From a virus (Duplodnaviria; Caudoviricetes), in IMG/VR virus record IMGVR_UViG_3300032373_000080, positions 1 to 29,789 of that record: DNA of 29,789 bases. The stretch is one strand, 5' to 3'. The position numbers were made by a program, and so were the translations under genes. Of this stretch, positions 7,441 through 24,538 are shown piece by piece. Position 1 is the stretch's first letter. Each line of letters starts with the position of its first letter. The notes beneath the pieces are model-generated. The model did no database searches. It was not told the DNA's origin and was given only the letters and a program-made list of their open reading frames with translations.

Positions 7441-7469
7441 TTGCATATGATGCGTATTAATATTATACT
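7441..7469 (+). promoter_or_regulatory. Sigma70-type promoter for the peptide/membrane protein/lysis operon
   Basis: TTGCAT (7441-7446), 17 bp spacer, TATACT (7464-7469); same architecture as the promoter at 962-990. Confidence 0.65.
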
Positions 7470-7516
7470 CTGCTAGACATTCTAACTTAACGTAATTAAC
7501 TAGCGGAGTATACATC

Positions 7517-7621
7517 ATGCCAACAGGTACAGACGGTAATAAAACACCCCCAGGTAAAGATAAGAAAGAAAGCTCTGAATCAGATTCTAAAGCTGAATCT
7601 GATAAGCAGAAAAAGAAATAA
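7517..7621 (+). CDS. Small hydrophilic peptide, 34 aa (not in ORF track): MPTGTDGNKTPPGKDKKESSESDSKAESDKQKKK
   Basis: GGAG RBS at 7505-7508, ATG 7517, TAA stop 7619-7621 overlapping the next ATG (TAATG coupling); fills the gap between the promoter and the next gene. Confidence 0.75.
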   Translation: MPTGTDGNKTPPGKDKKESSESDSKAESDKQKKK

Positions 7622-8109
7622 TGTACCAACTTCCTATAGAATTTGACGGTATTGCTATATTACTGGCTTTACTCTTTTATCGTCAAAGTGCTCCTGAACA
7701 TGAACGTACCGCATTCTGTGTGTTGTGCTTCTTTGTTGTTTCAGAAGTAGTATACCAAAGGTTCTTTTTGGATATACGTAGTCAAAACAATTGGCTAATT
7801 TTTATACTATATAATGTAATAAACACCGCCGTTTGCTACAAGCTACATCAATTAAAATCTCATCTAATTATATTACTTACAATCTTACTAAATGTTTTGT
7901 TAAATATTGTTGTCTCCTTCAATACCACTAGCGACTTAGTGGGACAAATTGTCTATACTTCATACAGTTACATAGCAGCAGCCTTAATGCTAGTGTGTTT
8001 ATGGTATATGTGGAGTATCAAGAATGGAAATAGAATTTTGGAGCGTTTGGCTGATAGTAAGAGTAAGTGGGGGATTCTTTTTCGGCCTAATAATGGGATG
8101 GTTTTCTAG
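7621..8109 (+). CDS. Multi-pass membrane protein (about 5 TM segments)
   Basis: 162 aa; hydrophobic stretches GIAILLALLFY, AFCVLCFFVVSEVVY, WLIFILYNVINTAVCY, LIILLTILLNVLLNIVVSF, YSYIAAALMLVCLWYMW; basic C-terminal tail. Confidence 0.8.
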   Translation: MYQLPIEFDGIAILLALLFYRQSAPEHERTAFCVLCFFVVSEVVYQRFFLDIRSQNNWLIFILYNVINTAVCYKLHQLKSHLIILLTILLNVLLNIVVSFNTTSDLVGQIVYTSYSYIAAALMLVCLWYMWSIKNGNRILERLADSKSKWGILFRPNNGMVF

Positions 8110-8236
8110 GGGTTACTATGAGCGAAGAAAAGATTTCATTTCCAATGTTCAAACTCTGGACAGACTCACACGACAAGATGATGGGTGCGTTCATAGAAGA
8201 AATGAAGGAAATGAAGAAAGAGCAGCAACAAACTAA
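8024..8236 (+). CDS. Possible overlapping small membrane protein (70 aa)
   Basis: GGAG 8 nt upstream of ATG 8024; N-terminal hydrophobic segment FWSVWLIVRVSGGFFFGLIMGWF followed by YYERRK; overlaps both neighbours in a different frame. Confidence 0.35.
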   Translation: MEIEFWSVWLIVRVSGGFFFGLIMGWFSRGYYERRKDFISNVQTLDRLTRQDDGCVHRRNEGNEERAATN

Positions 8237-8573
8237 CACATTACTTCGTGATGATATTAATGTAACTAAAGGGATACTTTCACAACATATTACTGAATAC
8301 ACTAAAATGGTTCATGAATTTACTGAACTACATAAAGAATTTGTAGAAAATACAGATAAGAAATTTGCTACTATATTTAAGATTCTAAAAGCCAGAGCAG
8401 GACTCTATACAGGATATCGTTGGGTTAAAGGGGTTATTGGTATTATTGCTGTAGGGGCACTTACTGCTGCTGGTGCTTCATTTTGGAATACATATTACGC
8501 TACCAAGAATACCAAAACAGACACTGTAATTACGCAGCAAGAACCTCGTAAGCAAAAGGTAGAGCAAAAATGA
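8118..8573 (+). CDS. Holin/antiholin-like single-TM protein with N-terminal coiled coil
   Basis: 151 aa; charged helical N-terminus, TM segment VIGIIAVGALTAAGASFW; ATGA overlap with the endolysin-like gene; AGGGG RBS. Confidence 0.6.
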   Translation: MSEEKISFPMFKLWTDSHDKMMGAFIEEMKEMKKEQQQTNTLLRDDINVTKGILSQHITEYTKMVHEFTELHKEFVENTDKKFATIFKILKARAGLYTGYRWVKGVIGIIAVGALTAAGASFWNTYYATKNTKTDTVITQQEPRKQKVEQK

Positions 8574-8962
8574 GTAATATAATAGTTGATAGATGGTATC
8601 GTCCTAAAAGTACGGTAGGTATATTTACAGTACAAAATTTTTCATGTTTTAGTTTAGAATTGCCAGATTTAGAAAATCAAACTGGTATATCGTGTATTCC
8701 TGAAGGTACCTATAATTATTTCTCTCGGTATAGTCCGGGCAATAAGAGTCAAGTTATACAATTACTTGAAGTGCCCAACCGTTCATATGTTCAAGTACAT
8801 GCGGGAAATTTCACACGACAAATAAGAGGTTGTATCCTAGTAGGGGATGCAATTAAATTCATTGATGGTGACGAAATTCCTGATGTTTCTAACTCTAAAA
8901 ACACATTAGTTAAAGTTTTAGACTTGGCTGGGGATACTGGAACCATAACAGTAAGGAGTTAG
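8570..8962 (+). CDS. Putative endolysin, DUF5675-like (L,D-peptidase-like His/Cys motif)
   Basis: 130 aa; STVG...CFSLELP...SCIPEGTY...VPNRSYVQVHAGN...GCILVG matches my recollection of the DUF5675 pattern; lies between membrane proteins. Confidence 0.75.
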   Translation: MSNIIVDRWYRPKSTVGIFTVQNFSCFSLELPDLENQTGISCIPEGTYNYFSRYSPGNKSQVIQLLEVPNRSYVQVHAGNFTRQIRGCILVGDAIKFIDGDEIPDVSNSKNTLVKVLDLAGDTGTITVRS

Positions 8963-8964
8963 AT

Positions 8965-9423
8965 ATGTCATTTTGGGGTAGATTATTCGGTTCTTCGGAA
9001 ACTACCAAAGAAGCAATGAGCATGGTCAGAGATGGCTTAGACTCTATGTGGTACACTGATGAAGAAGAAGCAACAGATAAAGCTAGAGCAGTATCTGAAG
9101 GAAGACAAGTATTACTTGAATGGGTTAAAAACTCGCAAGGCCAAAACCTATCTAGACGTTTTCTAGCTATATCAATATCCGTAACTTGGTTATTTGGTAA
9201 ACTTTGTGGTGTAGGCATAGGTATTTATGCCTCATTTACCGAAAGTAAAGAACTGGTAGGTAAGTTACAAGAATCATCAAATATCGTAAGTGAGTTTTCT
9301 AGTGATATGACACCGGCCGTCATGTTAATTCTTGGTTTTTATTTTGCTGCTCCTCATATGGGTAAAATAGCAGAGGCTGCTTTAACTAAGTTTGGGGATA
9401 GAAATACTAAAGATGTTAAGTAG
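8965..9423 (+). CDS. Putative holin (resembles GTA 3TM-type holins)
   Basis: 152 aa; MSFWGRLFG start, WYTDEEEA, SQGQNLSRRFLA, TM segments and MLILGFYF; adjacent to the endolysin-like gene. Confidence 0.65.
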   Translation: MSFWGRLFGSSETTKEAMSMVRDGLDSMWYTDEEEATDKARAVSEGRQVLLEWVKNSQGQNLSRRFLAISISVTWLFGKLCGVGIGIYASFTESKELVGKLQESSNIVSEFSSDMTPAVMLILGFYFAAPHMGKIAEAALTKFGDRNTKDVK

Positions 9424-9946: not shown

Positions 9947-12900
9947 ATGCCAGTAACTATACTCAATCCCGCAGTAGGTACTGCTGATAGCAATTCAAAT
10001 CCTGTAGCCCCTTCTGCAGGAGTTGACCGCTATTGGCGTATTACCTATATATACGATTCCAGTTCTTGGGCTAGTAGACCAACACAAATCCAAGTATCTG
10101 GGGATACTAATACAACATTAGATAGGATACATAGTTTTACTGGTACAGATTTTCAAATATTAACATTTGGGTGTAAAGACGCAGACATAGGCACTAACCC
10201 TAGCATTGCTAACGGTAGTCTATCTGCTTTAGATGGTGCACTTCCTCCTAACGATAACTTAACTATTGTCATCGGTGAAGTATTTGCAGGTGTAGACCAA
10301 ACTACTCCATTTACTGATACCATTAATGATGGTTATGATGTAAGTGATAGAACCAACAACGCAGATATACCATTTACTATTGACGCATTAAATGGTGCAC
10401 TTTGTTCTGTGGTAGTAGTTGCTAATGAGACTGCATTAACATGGGCGCTTACTGCTAATGGTTATACTGCTGGTAGTGCAGCAACAACTAATACAGCCTT
10501 TGAAGCACATACAGCTACTAAGTCGCTAACCGCTGCCGCAACCGATGAACTAACTACTTTCGGTACTGGTTCAAGTACTTCTGAGAATGCTGTAGCAGCT
10601 TTCGTATTTTTACCTACGGCTATAACTACTGTTGTATCTCCAGATACTGTTGATATTAATTTTGTTGTAGAAACTCCAACTGTACAAAGCGGTCTGATTG
10701 GGGAGCATGTTTACCCTGATACTGTGGATATACAGTTAGATGCTGACAATGCAGAGGTAGTTGCCGGTCCTCCAGAATTTCCTGGACTTATCGGACAACT
10801 ATCAAACTACACGGCTTCTACCGGTGTACTTACATTCTCTGGTATTGGTAATAATGGTTCAGGTTGTGGTTATAATCATGAGACTAAAAAAGTTTATGTA
10901 GTACGTAATAATACTGCTGAAGTTTTTGAGTATAACGAAGGTGACTACGATAATTTAATTCGTATCATTACTGTTTCCACTAACTATAAAGATACCGAGG
11001 GTGTCACTTATCTTGGTGATAACCGTATTGGTGTAGCAAGTGAGAATGGTAGTTCATATCGTCAAATTATCTTTACAATACCTACAGGTACCACTAACGT
11101 TAATGTAGTCCCTGACCAAACTTTATTCTTAGCTGAATCAGAAACAGATAACAATTCTGGATTAGAAGGTAATACTATTAATCTAGCTACTGGTGTTTGT
11201 TATGGTGTAGGTGAAGGAGAGCAGGCTAGTACCCCACGTAAGTTTTTACAGTGGACCTTACCTGTTGACCAAAATACAGATTATAACCATGCTGAGCCTG
11301 AATTAGATGCGTATGAGCCTTGGGACGCTGATACTGTATTTACTGGTTCAGGTAGTACATTGGATTTATCTGGTTGTTGTTTTGACCATACTAGTGGAAA
11401 TGTAATTATATCTTCCCATCGTGGAAGAAAAGTTATGTTGGTTGACCCAGCTAATGGAAATATACTAGATGAGTTACCTGCTACAGATTTAAGTCAAATT
11501 GAGTCTGTACAGATATTATCTAACGGTACTCTATTAATTGGTGGTGAAGCCAATGAATATCAATTATTCGTTCCTAACTTGGGTGAAGGAGAAGTTTCAG
11601 CTACCTTCGCTAACATAGAGATAGTGACAGAAAACGCTACTGTATCTAGTTTCTCTACTGTTGCTCCTATAGAAGCTACATCGGCTAATATAAACTTTGT
11701 AACTTACAGGGCTACGGTTGCTACCGGACAACTACCGGTAATATCTCCTATACCTCACGCAACTATTGCATTAGGTAATACCTATTCTTATACACCAGCA
11801 CTCTCTAATGGTGAAGACCCTTTCTGGTTTAAAGAGTATGGTCCCGACTCAATGACTGTTGACCCAGAAGATGGAAGTATCTCATGGGATTCATCTGTAT
11901 TGCTTCGTGGTCAGGGCATTAAAGTAGGTATTGGCTGTTCTAACGAAAGTGGTCAAGATATCGCATGGTTTGTAATTCATGTTGATAATACTGGAACCTC
12001 TAAGTTACTTGAACTAGGTATTGATACCGTATCTCCTTATATTAGGATTGCATGTCAAGAATCTATTGTAAATGGTGGAGATACTTTAGTAGTTCCTAGT
12101 GGGCATAGGTATGCTTCTGTAACTGCTGACCAATCATTTGAAAATACTTTTGCTGATGCAAATGTTAATGAAGTGCCAGAAGGCACTAACCTTCAAATGA
12201 CTACCATAATGTCCGAAGACTTTACTATTATTGATGCTGGACCTCATGATGGTATTCCAAGACAGGATGAAGCATTAGAATTGCTTATGCAGCCTAATGC
12301 ACCATCTAATTATGTTAAATGGTCAGGATTAGAGTGGACAGGTAATAATCGCCAAGCAATCAATTGCGGAGCTACACATAACGTATTTGAATTGGTGGGT
12401 GCTACTGATTCTGGGTATAACCTAGCTCCTACAACCTTTGTCGAAGCTGATGGGGCCTATGGTTCTGTTGCTGCAGGTTATTTACATGGTGAAGGTAGTG
12501 TATGGGAAAATAGTTACTGTTTTGGTCAATTTAGGTATGGCTTACAGTTTGGCGTAAGCATGTCAAATACTGTAATGAGCAGATGTATTGCACGCCCTGA
12601 TGAATATCATGGTGACCAGCCTAGAGGTGCATTAGTGCACTACACAGTAAGCTCTGCTAATATTCTTAATAACTTTGTTATTGATGGTGACCAAGAACAT
12701 TTATCACCATTCTACAAGAATTACGCCGGCGCATTTGGGTTACCTGCTACAGGCAATGAGACTGTTCCTGAAGACCAGTTAATGAATTGTAATATGGCTA
12801 TTAATAACCAAATGGTCACACTTACTAATGATGCAAGTAGAGCATCGGATACTCCTGACTTCACAGTTAAGAATTTGGTAGCTGCTGCGGTAACAAGTAC

Positions 12901-14392
12901 CGATACTCCACAAACTGGTTCTAAGTCTCCATTTATATTTAGAACTAAACTACAAACTGATTTAGATGGTTTTACCTTCTATGACGCCTCTCCGTATCCA
13001 GGGTCTAGCTACAATAGTGCTTATCTTGTGCAGTCCGGTTCTAATAACACCTTTGAAGCAAAAAATGGTATTGCATATAGAATGGGGTGGGATGGTGCAG
13101 TTAATGTAAATAATGGTGATTTTACTTCAAGTAACCAAGTAGGAAGTACATTAGATAATATAAATATATTTGATTTTCCTGCTAATGTTGGTGGTACTTA
13201 TACTACGACATCTAACGTCACTACTGATACTAACCCGACAAATAATGGATTAGATTACTTACCCCGAACTGAGGAAGGTAGTCCGGTACATACAGCAGGA
13301 CAAGGTGCTAATATCCTTACTTTTGCTGGACCATCTAACGTACTTGGTGGTGATGTGGGCTGGAGAGATGTAACTGATGAATGGTGTTGGCCTCATCCTG
13401 CTGAAGAACATATTGCTTCACGTATGTCATCTTACAGTAAGTCAGGCTTACCAGTACGTAATGCTACCATCGGAGTCGACCCAACTGACTTTACTGGTGC
13501 TATCAATGGTGCTCGTGGATTTGCTGCATCGGGTGAAAGTTTCTCAGAGTATATTTGGGGATACTTAGGCCGTACAGTTCCCCCATTAAGAGTTGAGGTT
13601 AAACAACTAACTAATGATTCTGCTAAGTTTTATATTGGTAAGTATCGTTCAGTTAGAGGTGACTCAATAACTAAGTTTAACTTGTATCATAAAACTGATA
13701 CTAACAATCCTGTTGCTACATTTACTGGATTAAACCATACCCTTACTAATATACCTGAAGGTACTAATGAATATGTACTTAGGGCTGTAGACCCTAGTAA
13801 GGTTACTGCTTATGATGGTAATGAGGCAGGTGAATCAGGAAACAGTAGGACTTTATTAGTTACAGTCGACGCTGTACCAGTGACAAGTGTTGATGCTACT
13901 TTAGCTACGATTAATCTTACTACATATCAAGCTGCTGTAGTTTCTTCCCCGGTAGGTGGTACCGTACCTGACCCAGTTGATACCTATCCAATTTTTATGA
14001 ATTATGGAACCAAGCCAGAGATACCGGATGTTATGAATAGTCCTATATTACCTCTGGGAGATGATGTTGATTTGGTGGCTCAATTATTACGCCGATGGAG
14101 ATTTTTCTCTATTAGTACTGGTACTGATATTTATGCTACTATTATCTCACTTGATAGACGTACCCAGTATACCAATCCAATTGCCCAGTTAGATTCACAA
14201 TCGGAAGCAAATTGGGGAACGTCACTAGTTAACGTTTCGATACCGGCAAATGAAACCGCCACTATCGCAAATTTACCAATATCTTGGACCAATGGAATAG
14301 CCCCAGCATGGTTAGAAATTCAGGTGAGATTACCTCACGGAACTAAAACTTTCTACGCAGGTGTTAATTTAAGTCTAAGCACTATCGACTAA
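9947..14392 (+). CDS. Large multidomain fibre/adhesin-like virion protein (module A)
   Basis: 1481 aa; N-terminal beta-sandwich-like domain, five ~20 aa linker repeats, SdiA-regulated-like propeller (DTEGVTY, NSGLEG, DLSG), Ig-like domain, beta-helix-like region, FN3-like domain, C-terminal domain shared with 16323-19379; GAGGTG RBS. Confidence 0.75.
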   Translation: MPVTILNPAVGTADSNSNPVAPSAGVDRYWRITYIYDSSSWASRPTQIQVSGDTNTTLDRIHSFTGTDFQILTFGCKDADIGTNPSIANGSLSALDGALPPNDNLTIVIGEVFAGVDQTTPFTDTINDGYDVSDRTNNADIPFTIDALNGALCSVVVVANETALTWALTANGYTAGSAATTNTAFEAHTATKSLTAAATDELTTFGTGSSTSENAVAAFVFLPTAITTVVSPDTVDINFVVETPTVQSGLIGEHVYPDTVDIQLDADNAEVVAGPPEFPGLIGQLSNYTASTGVLTFSGIGNNGSGCGYNHETKKVYVVRNNTAEVFEYNEGDYDNLIRIITVSTNYKDTEGVTYLGDNRIGVASENGSSYRQIIFTIPTGTTNVNVVPDQTLFLAESETDNNSGLEGNTINLATGVCYGVGEGEQASTPRKFLQWTLPVDQNTDYNHAEPELDAYEPWDADTVFTGSGSTLDLSGCCFDHTSGNVIISSHRGRKVMLVDPANGNILDELPATDLSQIESVQILSNGTLLIGGEANEYQLFVPNLGEGEVSATFANIEIVTENATVSSFSTVAPIEATSANINFVTYRATVATGQLPVISPIPHATIALGNTYSYTPALSNGEDPFWFKEYGPDSMTVDPEDGSISWDSSVLLRGQGIKVGIGCSNESGQDIAWFVIHVDNTGTSKLLELGIDTVSPYIRIACQESIVNGGDTLVVPSGHRYASVTADQSFENTFADANVNEVPEGTNLQMTTIMSEDFTIIDAGPHDGIPRQDEALELLMQPNAPSNYVKWSGLEWTGNNRQAINCGATHNVFELVGATDSGYNLAPTTFVEADGAYGSVAAGYLHGEGSVWENSYCFGQFRYGLQFGVSMSNTVMSRCIARPDEYHGDQPRGALVHYTVSSANILNNFVIDGDQEHLSPFYKNYAGAFGLPATGNETVPEDQLMNCNMAINNQMVTLTNDASRASDTPDFTVKNLVAAAVTSTDTPQTGSKSPFIFRTKLQTDLDGFTFYDASPYPGSSYNSAYLVQSGSNNTFEAKNGIAYRMGWDGAVNVNNGDFTSSNQVGSTLDNINIFDFPANVGGTYTTTSNVTTDTNPTNNGLDYLPRTEEGSPVHTAGQGANILTFAGPSNVLGGDVGWRDVTDEWCWPHPAEEHIASRMSSYSKSGLPVRNATIGVDPTDFTGAINGARGFAASGESFSEYIWGYLGRTVPPLRVEVKQLTNDSAKFYIGKYRSVRGDSITKFNLYHKTDTNNPVATFTGLNHTLTNIPEGTNEYVLRAVDPSKVTAYDGNEAGESGNSRTLLVTVDAVPVTSVDATLATINLTTYQAAVVSSPVGGTVPDPVDTYPIFMNYGTKPEIPDVMNSPILPLGDDVDLVAQLLRRWRFFSISTGTDIYATIISLDRRTQYTNPIAQLDSQSEANWGTSLVNVSIPANETATIANLPISWTNGIAPAWLEIQVRLPHGTKTFYAGVNLSLSTID

Positions 14393-15089: not shown

Positions 15090-15434
15090 ATGTCAGACCC
15101 AATCCCCAACATTGATGACAAAGCAATGTCTGAGTTAAAGAAAGAAGCTCTACGCCCTGTAATTGTTATATCTGCATCAATTCTCATATTATCAATAACA
15201 TTCAATAACGTTGGCTTTAGACGTGTAATCGACGCTTATGCAAAATCACTTGAACATAAAATAGAAAATTCTGTTGAGTGTAAAACTGAAATTGCTAAGG
15301 TAAATACTGCCGAATTAAATACACAAATAGAAAGCCAAGTTAAATTATATTTAGATTCTTATATGAAGCCGTACAATAGTAGATTAGTAAACGTAGAAGA
15401 ATTAGCTCACAGTAAAGGGAATAAGAAACAATGA
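15090..15434 (+). CDS. Single-TM membrane protein with C-terminal helical region
   Basis: 114 aa; TM segment PVIVISASILILSITF; GAGGA RBS; ATGA overlap with the next gene. Confidence 0.75.
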   Translation: MSDPIPNIDDKAMSELKKEALRPVIVISASILILSITFNNVGFRRVIDAYAKSLEHKIENSVECKTEIAKVNTAELNTQIESQVKLYLDSYMKPYNSRLVNVEELAHSKGNKKQ

Positions 15435-16321
15435 AAAGAGTAATAATTTTACTTCTGTCGTGTTTAGTACTTAATGTACATTCAGCAGAATTAGCTGACT
15501 ATGTACCTGAAGGTCCAGCAAGCACTATAGGAAACGGTACAGACCTTAGCGGTGTTGCTTATGGCTCAACGCAAGAAGGCCTATTTGGGGAATTCACTGT
15601 AGATAACTACAATGCGACATTATCATACCCCGGTGACAAAACTTGTAACTTAGGTGGAGATTTAGAAGGCGTAACCATGGGCCAAAACCCAGGAGATGTC
15701 TATGTCTTAAATGAATCCATTAATGGTATTAGAGGGGTAACTGTAAGTTCCTCTGGATGTACTGACACTAATAAGTTTAAAGTCAATCTATCTAGTTCAA
15801 GTAGTGATGGTTTAGAGGGAATAGTGTATAAAGACAATTGGTTATATTTCATTGATGAAAGAACTTCTGTTATTTATAAAGCACCTTCAGACAGTACTGG
15901 CTATTCAGTATCTCTTACTACTTTATTTACAGTACCTAATTGCTTTTTAGGTAGTGGACTGACATTTAATGGCGATAATCTGGTAATTGCTTGTGATAAT
16001 CAGGAAGGTAATGGAGGAAATGGTACGTTATACGAATACACCTTAGATGGTGGTTACGTATCTGAATTAGATGTAGACTTCACTAATGTTGAGGGTGTTA
16101 CATTTAATGGTAGTCAATTAATTGTTACCGGTGAACCAAACGTAATACAGAGATTCTCTGCAGGTGACCCAGTTGACCCTCCACCGCCACCACCAGGACC
16201 GACTGAAGAAACCTGTACATTTTCAGGTGAAGTAGTAGTAAATATTGAAACAGGACTTTGGGATGCTCAAACGGTACCTTTTGTCTGCCCAACTTTAACT
16301 GTCAGCGGGACATTAAACTAA
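15431..16321 (+). CDS. Signal-peptide-bearing SdiA-regulated (YjiK-like) beta-propeller protein
   Basis: 296 aa; MKRVIILLLSCLVLNVHS|AE signal; blade motifs DLSGVAY, DLEGVT, DGLEGIVY, GSGLTF, NVEGVTF, GEPNVIQRF; Pro-rich linker and a small C-terminal domain with two Cys. Confidence 0.75.
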   Translation: MKRVIILLLSCLVLNVHSAELADYVPEGPASTIGNGTDLSGVAYGSTQEGLFGEFTVDNYNATLSYPGDKTCNLGGDLEGVTMGQNPGDVYVLNESINGIRGVTVSSSGCTDTNKFKVNLSSSSSDGLEGIVYKDNWLYFIDERTSVIYKAPSDSTGYSVSLTTLFTVPNCFLGSGLTFNGDNLVIACDNQEGNGGNGTLYEYTLDGGYVSELDVDFTNVEGVTFNGSQLIVTGEPNVIQRFSAGDPVDPPPPPPGPTEETCTFSGEVVVNIETGLWDAQTVPFVCPTLTVSGTLN

Positions 16322-23101: not shown

Positions 23102-24538
23102 ATGACACAGTTATATAACGACCCGGCTGGTGGAACAGAGTCCAGTATCGGTAATCAATTTGAGACTTTCAAATGGGAGCGTAAAGCACTCATTGAAGCT
23201 CGTAAAGAGATGTATTTCTCTCAACTGTCTTCTACCAAAAATATGCCTAAGCATATGGGTAAGACTATTAAAAAGTATCATTACATTCCATTATTGGATG
23301 ATGCTAATATTAATGACCAAGGTATAGATGCCGCTGGTGTTACTACTACTCGTAGTAAAACTATCGTTATCCGTAAACCAGGTACATTAAAAAATATCTA
23401 CACTGATTTCTACGCTGTAGGTGAAGGTGCTAATGATGGGGCTGCTGTAACTGCTGCTGAAGCACGAGCTATGGAACTATTCGCTAGTCCTGCTGTTGCT
23501 GGTTTAGATACATCAGATGTGGCTAATGATACCTATGCTGAAGCTAAAGCTGTACTTGAAGGCTTAGGTTGGGTTATCGATGATACTGCTGCTGCTGTAC
23601 CGGTAGCCGGTAATCTTTATGGTTCATCTAAAGATATCGGAACTATTGTTAGTAAGTTACCTACTCTTTCTGAGACAGGTGGACGAGTTAACCGAGTTGG
23701 CTTCAAGCGTGTTGAAATTGAAGGTACTATTGCTAAATTTGGTTTCTTCCAAGAGTACACTAAAGAATCCATGGACTTTGATACTGATGCGGAACGTATG
23801 CAACATATCAACCGTGAGATGCTTAACGGTGCTGTAGAAATTACTGAAGATGCAATCCAGATTGACATGTTAAATGGTGCTGGTGTTGTACGTTACGGTG
23901 GTGCTGCTGCTAGTGCTGCAGAAATTTCTGGTGAATCAGGTGAAGTATCTAGTCCTACTAACGCAGGGTTAACACGTTTAGCTATCGATTTAGATAATAA
24001 CCGTACCCCTAAAAGTACTAATTTAATTACTGGTACTCGTTTAGTAGATACTAAAACTCTTCCAGCAGCTCGTTTCATGTACATCGGTTCTGAGCTAATC
24101 CCTACTGTAGAAAAAATGGTTGATGACTTCGGTGATAAACTATTTAAATCAGTTGAGACATATGCCGCAGGTACTACTGTTGCTAATGGTGAAATTGGTT
24201 CTGTAGGTAAGTTCCGAGTAATCGTTGCTCCTGAGATGGTTCATTGGGCTGGCGCCGGTAAAAGTGTAACTACTAATACTGGTTATAGAGAAACTGGCGG
24301 TAACTACGATGTCTTCCCAATGTTAGTTATTGGTTCAGAGGCATTCACTACTATAGGTTTCCAATCTGACGGTAAGTCTAAGAAATTTACTATATATGAC
24401 AAGAAGCCTGGTCTTGAAACTGCTGACCGTACTGACCCGTATGGCGAAATGGGATTCAGCTCTATTAAGTGGTACTACGGTTCACTTATCGAGCGTCCTG
24501 AACGTATCGCTGTATACAAAGTTGTTGCTGAGTGGTAA
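23102..24538 (+). CDS. Major capsid protein (N4 gp56-like) with an internal insertion
   Basis: 478 aa; MPKHMGKTIK, YIPLLDD.NINDQGIDA, GNLYGSSKDIG, GGRVNRVGF, DPYGEMGFSSIKWYYG, RPERIA. Confidence 0.97.
   Translation: MTQLYNDPAGGTESSIGNQFETFKWERKALIEARKEMYFSQLSSTKNMPKHMGKTIKKYHYIPLLDDANINDQGIDAAGVTTTRSKTIVIRKPGTLKNIYTDFYAVGEGANDGAAVTAAEARAMELFASPAVAGLDTSDVANDTYAEAKAVLEGLGWVIDDTAAAVPVAGNLYGSSKDIGTIVSKLPTLSETGGRVNRVGFKRVEIEGTIAKFGFFQEYTKESMDFDTDAERMQHINREMLNGAVEITEDAIQIDMLNGAGVVRYGGAAASAAEISGESGEVSSPTNAGLTRLAIDLDNNRTPKSTNLITGTRLVDTKTLPAARFMYIGSELIPTVEKMVDDFGDKLFKSVETYAAGTTVANGEIGSVGKFRVIVAPEMVHWAGAGKSVTTNTGYRETGGNYDVFPMLVIGSEAFTTIGFQSDGKSKKFTIYDKKPGLETADRTDPYGEMGFSSIKWYYGSLIERPERIAVYKVVAEW

Follow-up and report, generated by a model that had tools for sequence, protein, structure and literature searches.

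At the head of a lysis cassette in the window (the whole 29,789-nt stretch of phage DNA that was analysed), a 34-aa ORF encoding MPTGTDGNKTPPGKDKKESSESDSKAESDKQKKK is followed by a gene for a five-helix membrane (5-TM) protein, a nested ORF with one transmembrane (TM) helix, and holin-like and endolysin-like genes (Table 1). The TAA of the peptide ORF overlaps the ATG of the 162-aa ORF (TAATG), and the GGAG ribosome-binding site (RBS), the peptide and this stop/start overlap all lie where the initial annotation had placed them. The 70-aa one-TM ORF was missed both by that reading and by gene annotation. The holin-like, endolysin-like and second holin-like genes that had been listed downstream were recovered as presumed roles (gene 4, the DUF5675 match and phrog_9646, respectively). 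Homologues of the 152-aa membrane protein occur in Vibrio and Shewanella phages, mostly labelled hypothetical or TMhelix; behind this gene, no spanin pair was recognised in the window, unlike in many related loci.

Table 1 Promoter-like site and genes of the cassette in the window.
Feature	Coordinates	Strand	Description
Sigma-70-type promoter-like site, TTGCAT-17-TATACT	7441..7469	+	8/12 consensus bases; positional counterpart in 21/25 loci; not called by promoter scan
GGAG RBS of the peptide ORF	7505..7508	+	Seen in the sequence
34-aa peptide ORF	7517..7621	+	Core P-T-G-T-D-G (residues 2-7), variable charged tail, no hydrophobic segment
162-aa five-helix membrane protein	7621..8109	+	Predicted N-out/C-in; without a strong RBS of its own
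70-aa one-TM ORF, unannotated	8024..8236	+	+1 frame; GGAG RBS at 8012-8015; basic C-terminal tail
Gene 4, 151-aa holin-like protein (gp63/XhlA architecture)	8118..8573	+	Coiled-coil-like helical body and C-terminal TM helix 105-123; phrog_937 'hemolysin', E 0.009
DUF5675 protein, presumed endolysin	8570..8962	+	PF18925, E 1.9e-24; endolysin role suggested by position
152-aa membrane protein, presumed second holin	8965..9423	+	phrog_9646; putative holin role

The window comes from an N4-like phage and corresponds to its late region; terminase, portal and capsid genes were found in it. Its major capsid protein best matched those of Alteromonas phage PT15-A5 (Schitoviridae), Vibrio phage VBP47 and Pseudoalteromonas phage pYD6-A (52–61% identity), and judged by this capsid the phage is N4-like (Schitoviridae), with the virion RNA polymerase outside the window. 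An assignment to the phiEco32/SU10 group, taken from the Pfam name of the portal protein, was dropped since the capsid is closest to N4-like phages. A marine gammaproteobacterium is the likely host; a phage-like contig in a Colwellia MAG carries one relative of the 5-TM gene. The capsid gene itself (23102-24538) encodes 478 aa against a family profile of 356 positions and may carry an insertion, and its match to PT15-A5 is split in two pieces. Past the lysis cassette, two genes (9947-14392 and 15431-16321) carry SdiA-regulated-type domains (PF06977), and the 1481-aa product may be a receptor-binding appendage.

The peptide ORF and its promoter across related loci

Searches with the 5-TM family yielded 26 distinct loci including the window, 25 of them complete. 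Duplicates and the window's own DNA (L010-L014, L018, L027, L030-L035, L037, L039, L041-L043) were left out, and close pairs (L002/L003/L015, L009/L016, L007/L017, L020/L038) were kept, bringing the independent count nearer 20. The initial annotation had made its proposal depend chiefly on a small ORF being conserved upstream of 5-TM homologues, and a polar ORF of 21–53 aa indeed abuts the 5-TM start in all 26 loci; with ATG starts picked by hand, its stop lies −8 to +7 nt from that start, and the two overlap by 1 nt in 19/26. A DNA pattern for the peptide core found six stretches in IMG/VR, all six on contigs already known through the 5-TM gene. Of 373 other long ORFs, 2 fit a composition rule derived from the 26 small ORFs, the barba fold look-alike described below being one.

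The peptides (64–100% polar residues) share a core that is kept at the protein level, either M(C)PTGxDG or GG-x-D/E-x-D-G..P, though loosely across subfamilies (17% mean column identity). PT-type peptides, in 14 loci including the window, begin M(C)P-T-x-x-D-G, in which P, T and D never vary and are encoded by mixed codons; over the six core codons pN/pS was 0.31 (pS 0.46, pN 0.14, from pairs that are not independent), so that change is mostly synonymous. GG-type peptides, in the other 12 loci, carry an extension of 5–35 residues that ends in GG (11/12), often with V/I at −4; behind it stand a core that is polar or acidic and then Pro. The tails are conserved in neither length nor charge (net −10 to +8), as would be expected if the short core alone is read. 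No hydrophobic segment and no export signal were found in the window peptide. The lack of a signal sequence and the charged tail noted at the outset thus hold, while the TGxxGxKxPP core proposed with them gives way to P-T-x-x-D-G, without the PP. This conservation argues that the peptide is translated. As a side observation, a CxxCG motif lies in the tail of three peptides (L001:2391-2549, L002:311-472, L003:3852-4007) and may form a metal site behind the core.

The promoter-like site had been located correctly and lies directly behind the stop of a 1129-aa tail gene. A promoter scan of the window returned 13 sites, fewer than in shuffled sequence (16.8) and without TTGCAT-17-TATACT among them; on the window sequence alone the site is therefore no more than chance would give. 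It is backed by the homologous loci, since 21 of the 25 loci with enough upstream DNA have a TTG-N16-18-TATAAT-like site no more than 260 nt ahead of the peptide, compared with 4/25 control windows and 66/708 tiles, under a rule written after some loci had been seen. The site takes only two distances from the peptide, −58 to −76 where the peptide ORF comes first and −226 to −241 where another small gene precedes it. N4 late genes are transcribed by the host sigma-70 polymerase, and the unit described here would be transcribed likewise.

Between promoter and peptide, most related loci hold a conserved ORF of ~53 aa (RW.I...LSGIG...A..IA; L002:136-311, L005:3734-3909, L021:2733-2914). It is overlapped in another frame by an ORF of 32–36 aa, often with a central GG, which seemingly holds the RBS; together they resemble either a frameshift or another overlapping pair. 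The arrangement is absent from the window and from L006, L009, L016, L025 and L036.

The five-helix protein, the nested ORF and gene 4

The ~5-TM protein of the initial annotation was modelled by AlphaFold2 as five long helices (pLDDT 88.5), of which a Kyte-Doolittle scan detects four. Profile searches gave 49 representatives at 50% identity (96–187 aa). Counts of K+R per sequence over 66 aligned rows (loop 1, 2.1; loop 3, 1.65; C-tail, 3.1; versus N-terminus, 0.02; loop 2, 1.2; loop 4, 0.4) predict an N-out/C-in topology by the positive-inside rule. On this topology the conserved polar residues fall mostly on the predicted periplasmic side (D9, Y45, R53, N56, W58, Y61, Y64, N95, Y112 and Y115), with Y64 in 65 and N95 in 64 of the 66 sequences; H81, E126 and Y129, also conserved, are predicted to point towards the cytoplasm.

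The two peptide types have their counterparts in the membrane protein. D9, R53, N56 and W58 are present in 14/14 PT-type proteins; GG-type proteins carry membrane Glu37, His41 and Glu126 (in 11, 10 and 11 of 12), and the PT type lacks these together with the peptide extension. The PT type forms one clade (100/100, branch 1.72), on which peptide type and 5-TM type change together once. A single joint switch is not evidence of the pairwise covariation between peptide and membrane protein that had been proposed as a check. Co-folding of the two scored 0.03 against a mark of 0.32 and was counted neither for nor against their pairing.

We compared the 5-TM protein with known families. A Pfam search of 12 members gave nothing significant (best holin match Phage_holin_2, E 0.29 in 1/12), no named PHROG was reached at E ≤ 0.05 in 66 members, and Foldseek against the PDB gave no match at E ≤ 0.001; known holin and antiholin families are thus without a profile match in these Pfam and PHROG sets. 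The ESM Atlas returned unnamed viral clusters, matches at TM 0.53 to the membrane portions of AraC and GGDEF/EAL proteins, below the bar for naming, and no usable named match. Photosystem I matches in a profile search of PDB sequences (E ≥ 0.026) were taken as hydrophobic noise. Searching cultured phages by tblastn with the window 5-TM protein, gene 4 and two distant members gave nothing. Among 401 genomes of G001's family, only G001 itself and one short match (L044) were found; the latter contains a stop, has a lexA-like gene downstream and was discarded.

Near the 3′ end of the 5-TM gene, an ATG in the +1 frame at codon 127–141 opens an ORF of 56–78 aa in 25/25 complete loci, with a hydrophobic N-terminal helix and a basic tail, which overlaps the 3′ end of the 5-TM gene and extends 76–124 nt into gene 4. 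The +1 frame holds no stop in the 822 codons after this ATG, compared with 330 in the 3218 before it, and the +2 frame over the same codons is not cleared (125 stops in 822).

Gene 4 follows at −3 to +9 nt and encodes 108–160 aa with a helical body and a C-terminal TM helix, both in 25/25 complete loci; the coiled coil was judged by eye and from weak matches to coiled-coil families. Profile matches were few (XhlA, E 8e-4, in 1/23 members; phrog_937 in 2/23), and alignment with N4 gp63 reached 6.9% in hhalign, over the TM helix only; the holin-like label of gene 4 comes from its architecture only. In 19/25 loci the gene directly behind gene 4 is endolysin-like, recognised by eye from known motifs (in the window, by the DUF5675 match); by the same inspection, it is not in L005, L006, L008, L019, L020 and L036. 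The unit occurs in an N4-like phage and, by eye, in contigs with lambdoid-looking neighbours, beside different endolysins. Conservation of sequence and order indicates that peptide, 5-TM protein, one-TM protein and gene 4 are a real, conserved and undescribed four-gene unit.

Fold look-alikes in cultured phages

Foldseek searches of BFVD with the 5-TM model gave best matches mostly of 139–178 aa, unnamed or uncharacterised, at TM 0.45–0.7 and E 0.02–2, below significance. Two of these look-alikes were tied to genomes by protein length and organism rather than by accession. One is a 139-aa protein of Rheinheimera barba phages, which grow on strain BAL341 (115 records). It has no sequence similarity to the 5-TM family, is preceded with a 1-nt overlap by a 24-aa ORF (MPSNSGSKPDKPVKPAEQNKKKSK), and sits with it among DUF5675, holin-like and spanin-like genes, in a cassette that lacks a one-TM ORF. 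The second look-alike comes from what we take, by its organism, to be Shewanella phage 3/49, where a 171-aa gene stands after the peptidase gene and shows weak similarity to the 5-TM family (24% over 88 columns, probability 4.7%). Nested at the start annotated for this gene is a 21-aa ORF (MGSANQKPREKPASTTKPKRK) with a GGAG; a one-TM ORF in the +1 frame has ATGs 94 and 115 nt upstream of the stop of the 171-aa gene, and the next gene has the coiled-coil/C-terminal-TM plan. The annotated start of this gene, S349_48, may be wrong (L054:30806-30888), as the GGAG serves the nested ORF; no canonical start follows immediately after the stop of that ORF.

Both look-alikes, checked after the pattern had been set, thus show a Pro/Lys-containing small ORF in a lysis cassette, and their cassettes have different gene orders. 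The look-alikes may point to a superfamily of such pairs, each with its own core. For a third candidate, Shewanella phage 1/41, the annotation lists no gene of 164 aa, the length expected, and it was not counted. Phages SppYZU01, Vibrio 1.149.O, 1.122.A, PG11 and Alteromonas PT11-V19 share downstream lysis-type genes and show no such pair in their annotation. In Vibrio phage 13VV501A (L046:1227-2010), a membrane-protein ORF that lacks annotation precedes a coiled-coil/TM gene and DUF5675 and is overlapped by a 51-aa ORF containing GG-KRKPKKLP, a similar layout in what is apparently a different family.

Possible roles in holin timing

A role of the unit in lysis is suggested by gene position. 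Our best reading, held tentatively and at somewhat less than an even chance, is a peptide-reading regulator of holin timing, in which both the binding of the peptide and the function would follow from the features above. With the same reserve at each functional step, the roles read best as peptide ligand, 5-TM receptor, one-TM relay and gene 4 target. The TAATG overlap, together with a 5-TM gene that has SD-like matches of only 3–4 nt or none in the 26 loci, makes it likely that this gene is translationally coupled to the peptide, and the overlap would supply peptide and receptor in a fixed ratio. The 5-TM protein would read the short core of the peptide in a pocket predicted to face the periplasm. 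Having no export signal, the peptide would be confined to the cytoplasm until the membrane fails, and could reach the pocket only after a breach of an inner membrane, when the first holin lesions open in its own cell or when neighbouring cells lyse. The occupied receptor may then act, via the one-TM protein, on the coiled coil of gene 4 in the cytoplasm and shift triggering, with delay the likelier direction by analogy with lysis inhibition.

Signalling among cells is possible within this reading, and we give it about half the weight of the whole. In that form, which we consider rather unlikely, spilled cytoplasmic peptide, trimmed to a core of 6–10 residues, would be read by the five-helix receptor in other infected cells and relayed through the one-TM protein to the holin, delaying lysis at high phage density. 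A 3.7-kDa peptide is too big for general porins unless trimmed, and no kinase- or regulator-fused form was seen among the 49 representatives or, in a weak search, among longer proteins. Both points count against the regulator reading, as do the loci without an adjacent endolysin-like gene, the residues predicted to face the cytoplasm, the loose core with its single type switch and the barba cassette without a one-TM ORF. The ligand/receptor pair of the initial annotation stands in part: the conserved small ORF, the core pN/pS and the polar residues predicted to be periplasmic speak for it, and the type switch lends no support from covariation.

We then compared the unit with known systems of lysis control. 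In a recent report, the N4 pinholin gp63 is described as a coiled coil with a C-terminal TMD, encoded ahead of the endolysin, and its postulated inhibitor as still unidentified (10.1101/2025.11.12.688109). The window phage is N4-like and gene 4 shares this plan; however, gene 4 has no gp63 homology detectable by hhalign, the endolysin here is DUF5675 and that of N4 is SAR, and the annotated N4 cassette gp60-63 shows, by annotation only, no peptide/5-TM pair. Rapid-lysis mutations in N4 so far argue against periplasmic regulation in that phage, according to its authors (10.1101/2025.11.12.688109). Holin T of T4, as summarised in the same report, is bound directly by RI, which is soluble and resides in the periplasm (10.1101/2025.11.12.688109). 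RI and RIII resemble the present unit as separate small genes that set holin timing upon events outside the cell, but T4 has neither a multi-pass receptor nor a coupled peptide. Lcc6 of Shewanella LambdaSo is reported as a 65-aa protein that has a single TM helix at its N-terminus and is required for the holin step (10.1101/2024.01.23.576932). By description its size and plan match the 56–78-aa one-TM ORF, and its host is a related gammaproteobacterium, but Lcc6 lies in a separate cluster and, in the text consulted, is not described as nested in another gene.

The P2 LysA-type antiholin, encoded by a separate gene, is a multi-pass membrane protein in the lysis operon; we know of no peptide coupled to it, and the 66 5-TM members differ in having no PHROG antiholin match. 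In arbitrium, which governs lysis–lysogeny in Bacillus, AimP is made with a signal peptide, and AimR, a TPR regulator, is cytoplasmic. The likeness lies in the adjacent genes for a small peptide and its presumed cognate reader, as outlined for AimP/AimR (PMC12768286, PMC10075063); here, in contrast, there is no signal peptide, the reader would be a membrane protein, the presumed host is Gram-negative and the genes lie in a lysis cassette. Consistent with this difference, we found no N-terminal signal sequence, no TPR or RRNPP Pfam match in 12 members, and a five-helix model.

The peptide could, alternatively, be an intracellular subunit, a split-off cytoplasmic tail on the cytoplasmic face of the 5-TM protein or on the holin coiled coil, with the same role in lysis timing but never outside the cell. 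Its missing export signal, its fixed coupling to the 5-TM gene and the predicted cytoplasmic orientation of H81, E126 and Y129 would all fit. The N-terminus of the 5-TM protein is, however, predicted to be periplasmic, so that the peptide cannot be its lost cytoplasmic N-tail, and most invariant polar residues lie on the opposite side. Moreover, no fusion is visible among the 49 representatives or, in a weak search, among longer proteins, and we regard the subunit as unlikely.

Less probable still is a translational leader, in which the small ORF brings ribosomes to the 5-TM start or stalls them on Pro codons and the free peptide is inert. The frequent 1-nt overlap, the weak or missing SD-like matches of the 5-TM gene and a Pro content of 14% of peptide residues are what such a leader would show, but PP is present in 18/26 peptides and missing in 8, and PPP occurs in only 8/26. 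We found no conserved RNA structure (mean folding z −0.05, with 1/26 below −2, the window at −2.09); polyproline (EF-P) leaders such as MgtP are matched neither by this value nor by the PPP count, and a conserved GG/PP RNA hairpin is unsupported by folding z in the 26 loci. No RNA holder is listed for the peptide/5-TM region. The PT-type core is N-terminal and the tail behind it varies in length, so that a stall would come at no fixed distance from the next start, and coupling alone leaves the invariant P, T and D unexplained.

Similarly improbable, in our view, is a trio of peptide, 5-TM and one-TM genes that rides as a passenger on the late transcript and does another inner-membrane job (superinfection exclusion or counter-defence), leaving the holin untouched. 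Its own sigma-70-type promoter, the 6/25 loci without an adjacent endolysin-like gene and the lack of homology to known lysis regulators are compatible with this, but gene 4 follows closely in every complete locus and is overlapped by the one-TM ORF, and the look-alikes in two cultured phages likewise stand among lysis genes, in different gene orders.

V/I at −4 before the GG is reminiscent of double-glycine leaders; GG is absent from the window's peptide type, and by eye no exporter lies beside the unit. A 5-TM protein that works as a membrane enzyme or exporter akin to AgrB, cleaving the peptide behind Gly-Gly and secreting the core, is highly improbable: although GG-type loci pair the GG-ending extension with Glu37, His41 and Glu126, the window's subfamily has neither these residues nor a leader and so could not have such an enzyme, the type switch is one event, and no Pfam peptidase match, no AgrB match at E ≤ 1 in 12 members and no PDB match were obtained.

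For the regulation of holin timing, the unit gives named candidates: the peptide, its membrane-protein partner, whose fold is unassigned, and the nested gene missed by annotation, all linked to a holin-like gene. Such candidates bear on phages other than T4, including N4, whose own inhibitor is missing according to its authors (10.1101/2025.11.12.688109). Since look-alike pairs exist in cultured phages (Rheinheimera barba on BAL341, Shewanella 3/49), the proposal is testable now. If the peptide acts between cells, phages of Gram-negative hosts would be communicating through a membrane receptor and a ligand set free by lysis; the literature searched, with most subscription papers outside its scope, held no description of such communication or of the unit. 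The weaker reading would still add a conserved lysis regulator and correct the annotation of many lysis cassettes. In PT15-A5, the closest cultured N4-like phage, the lysis cassette includes a gene for a CheY-like receiver (L050:10251-12365), which stands between an N-terminal-TM coiled-coil gene and spanin-like genes.
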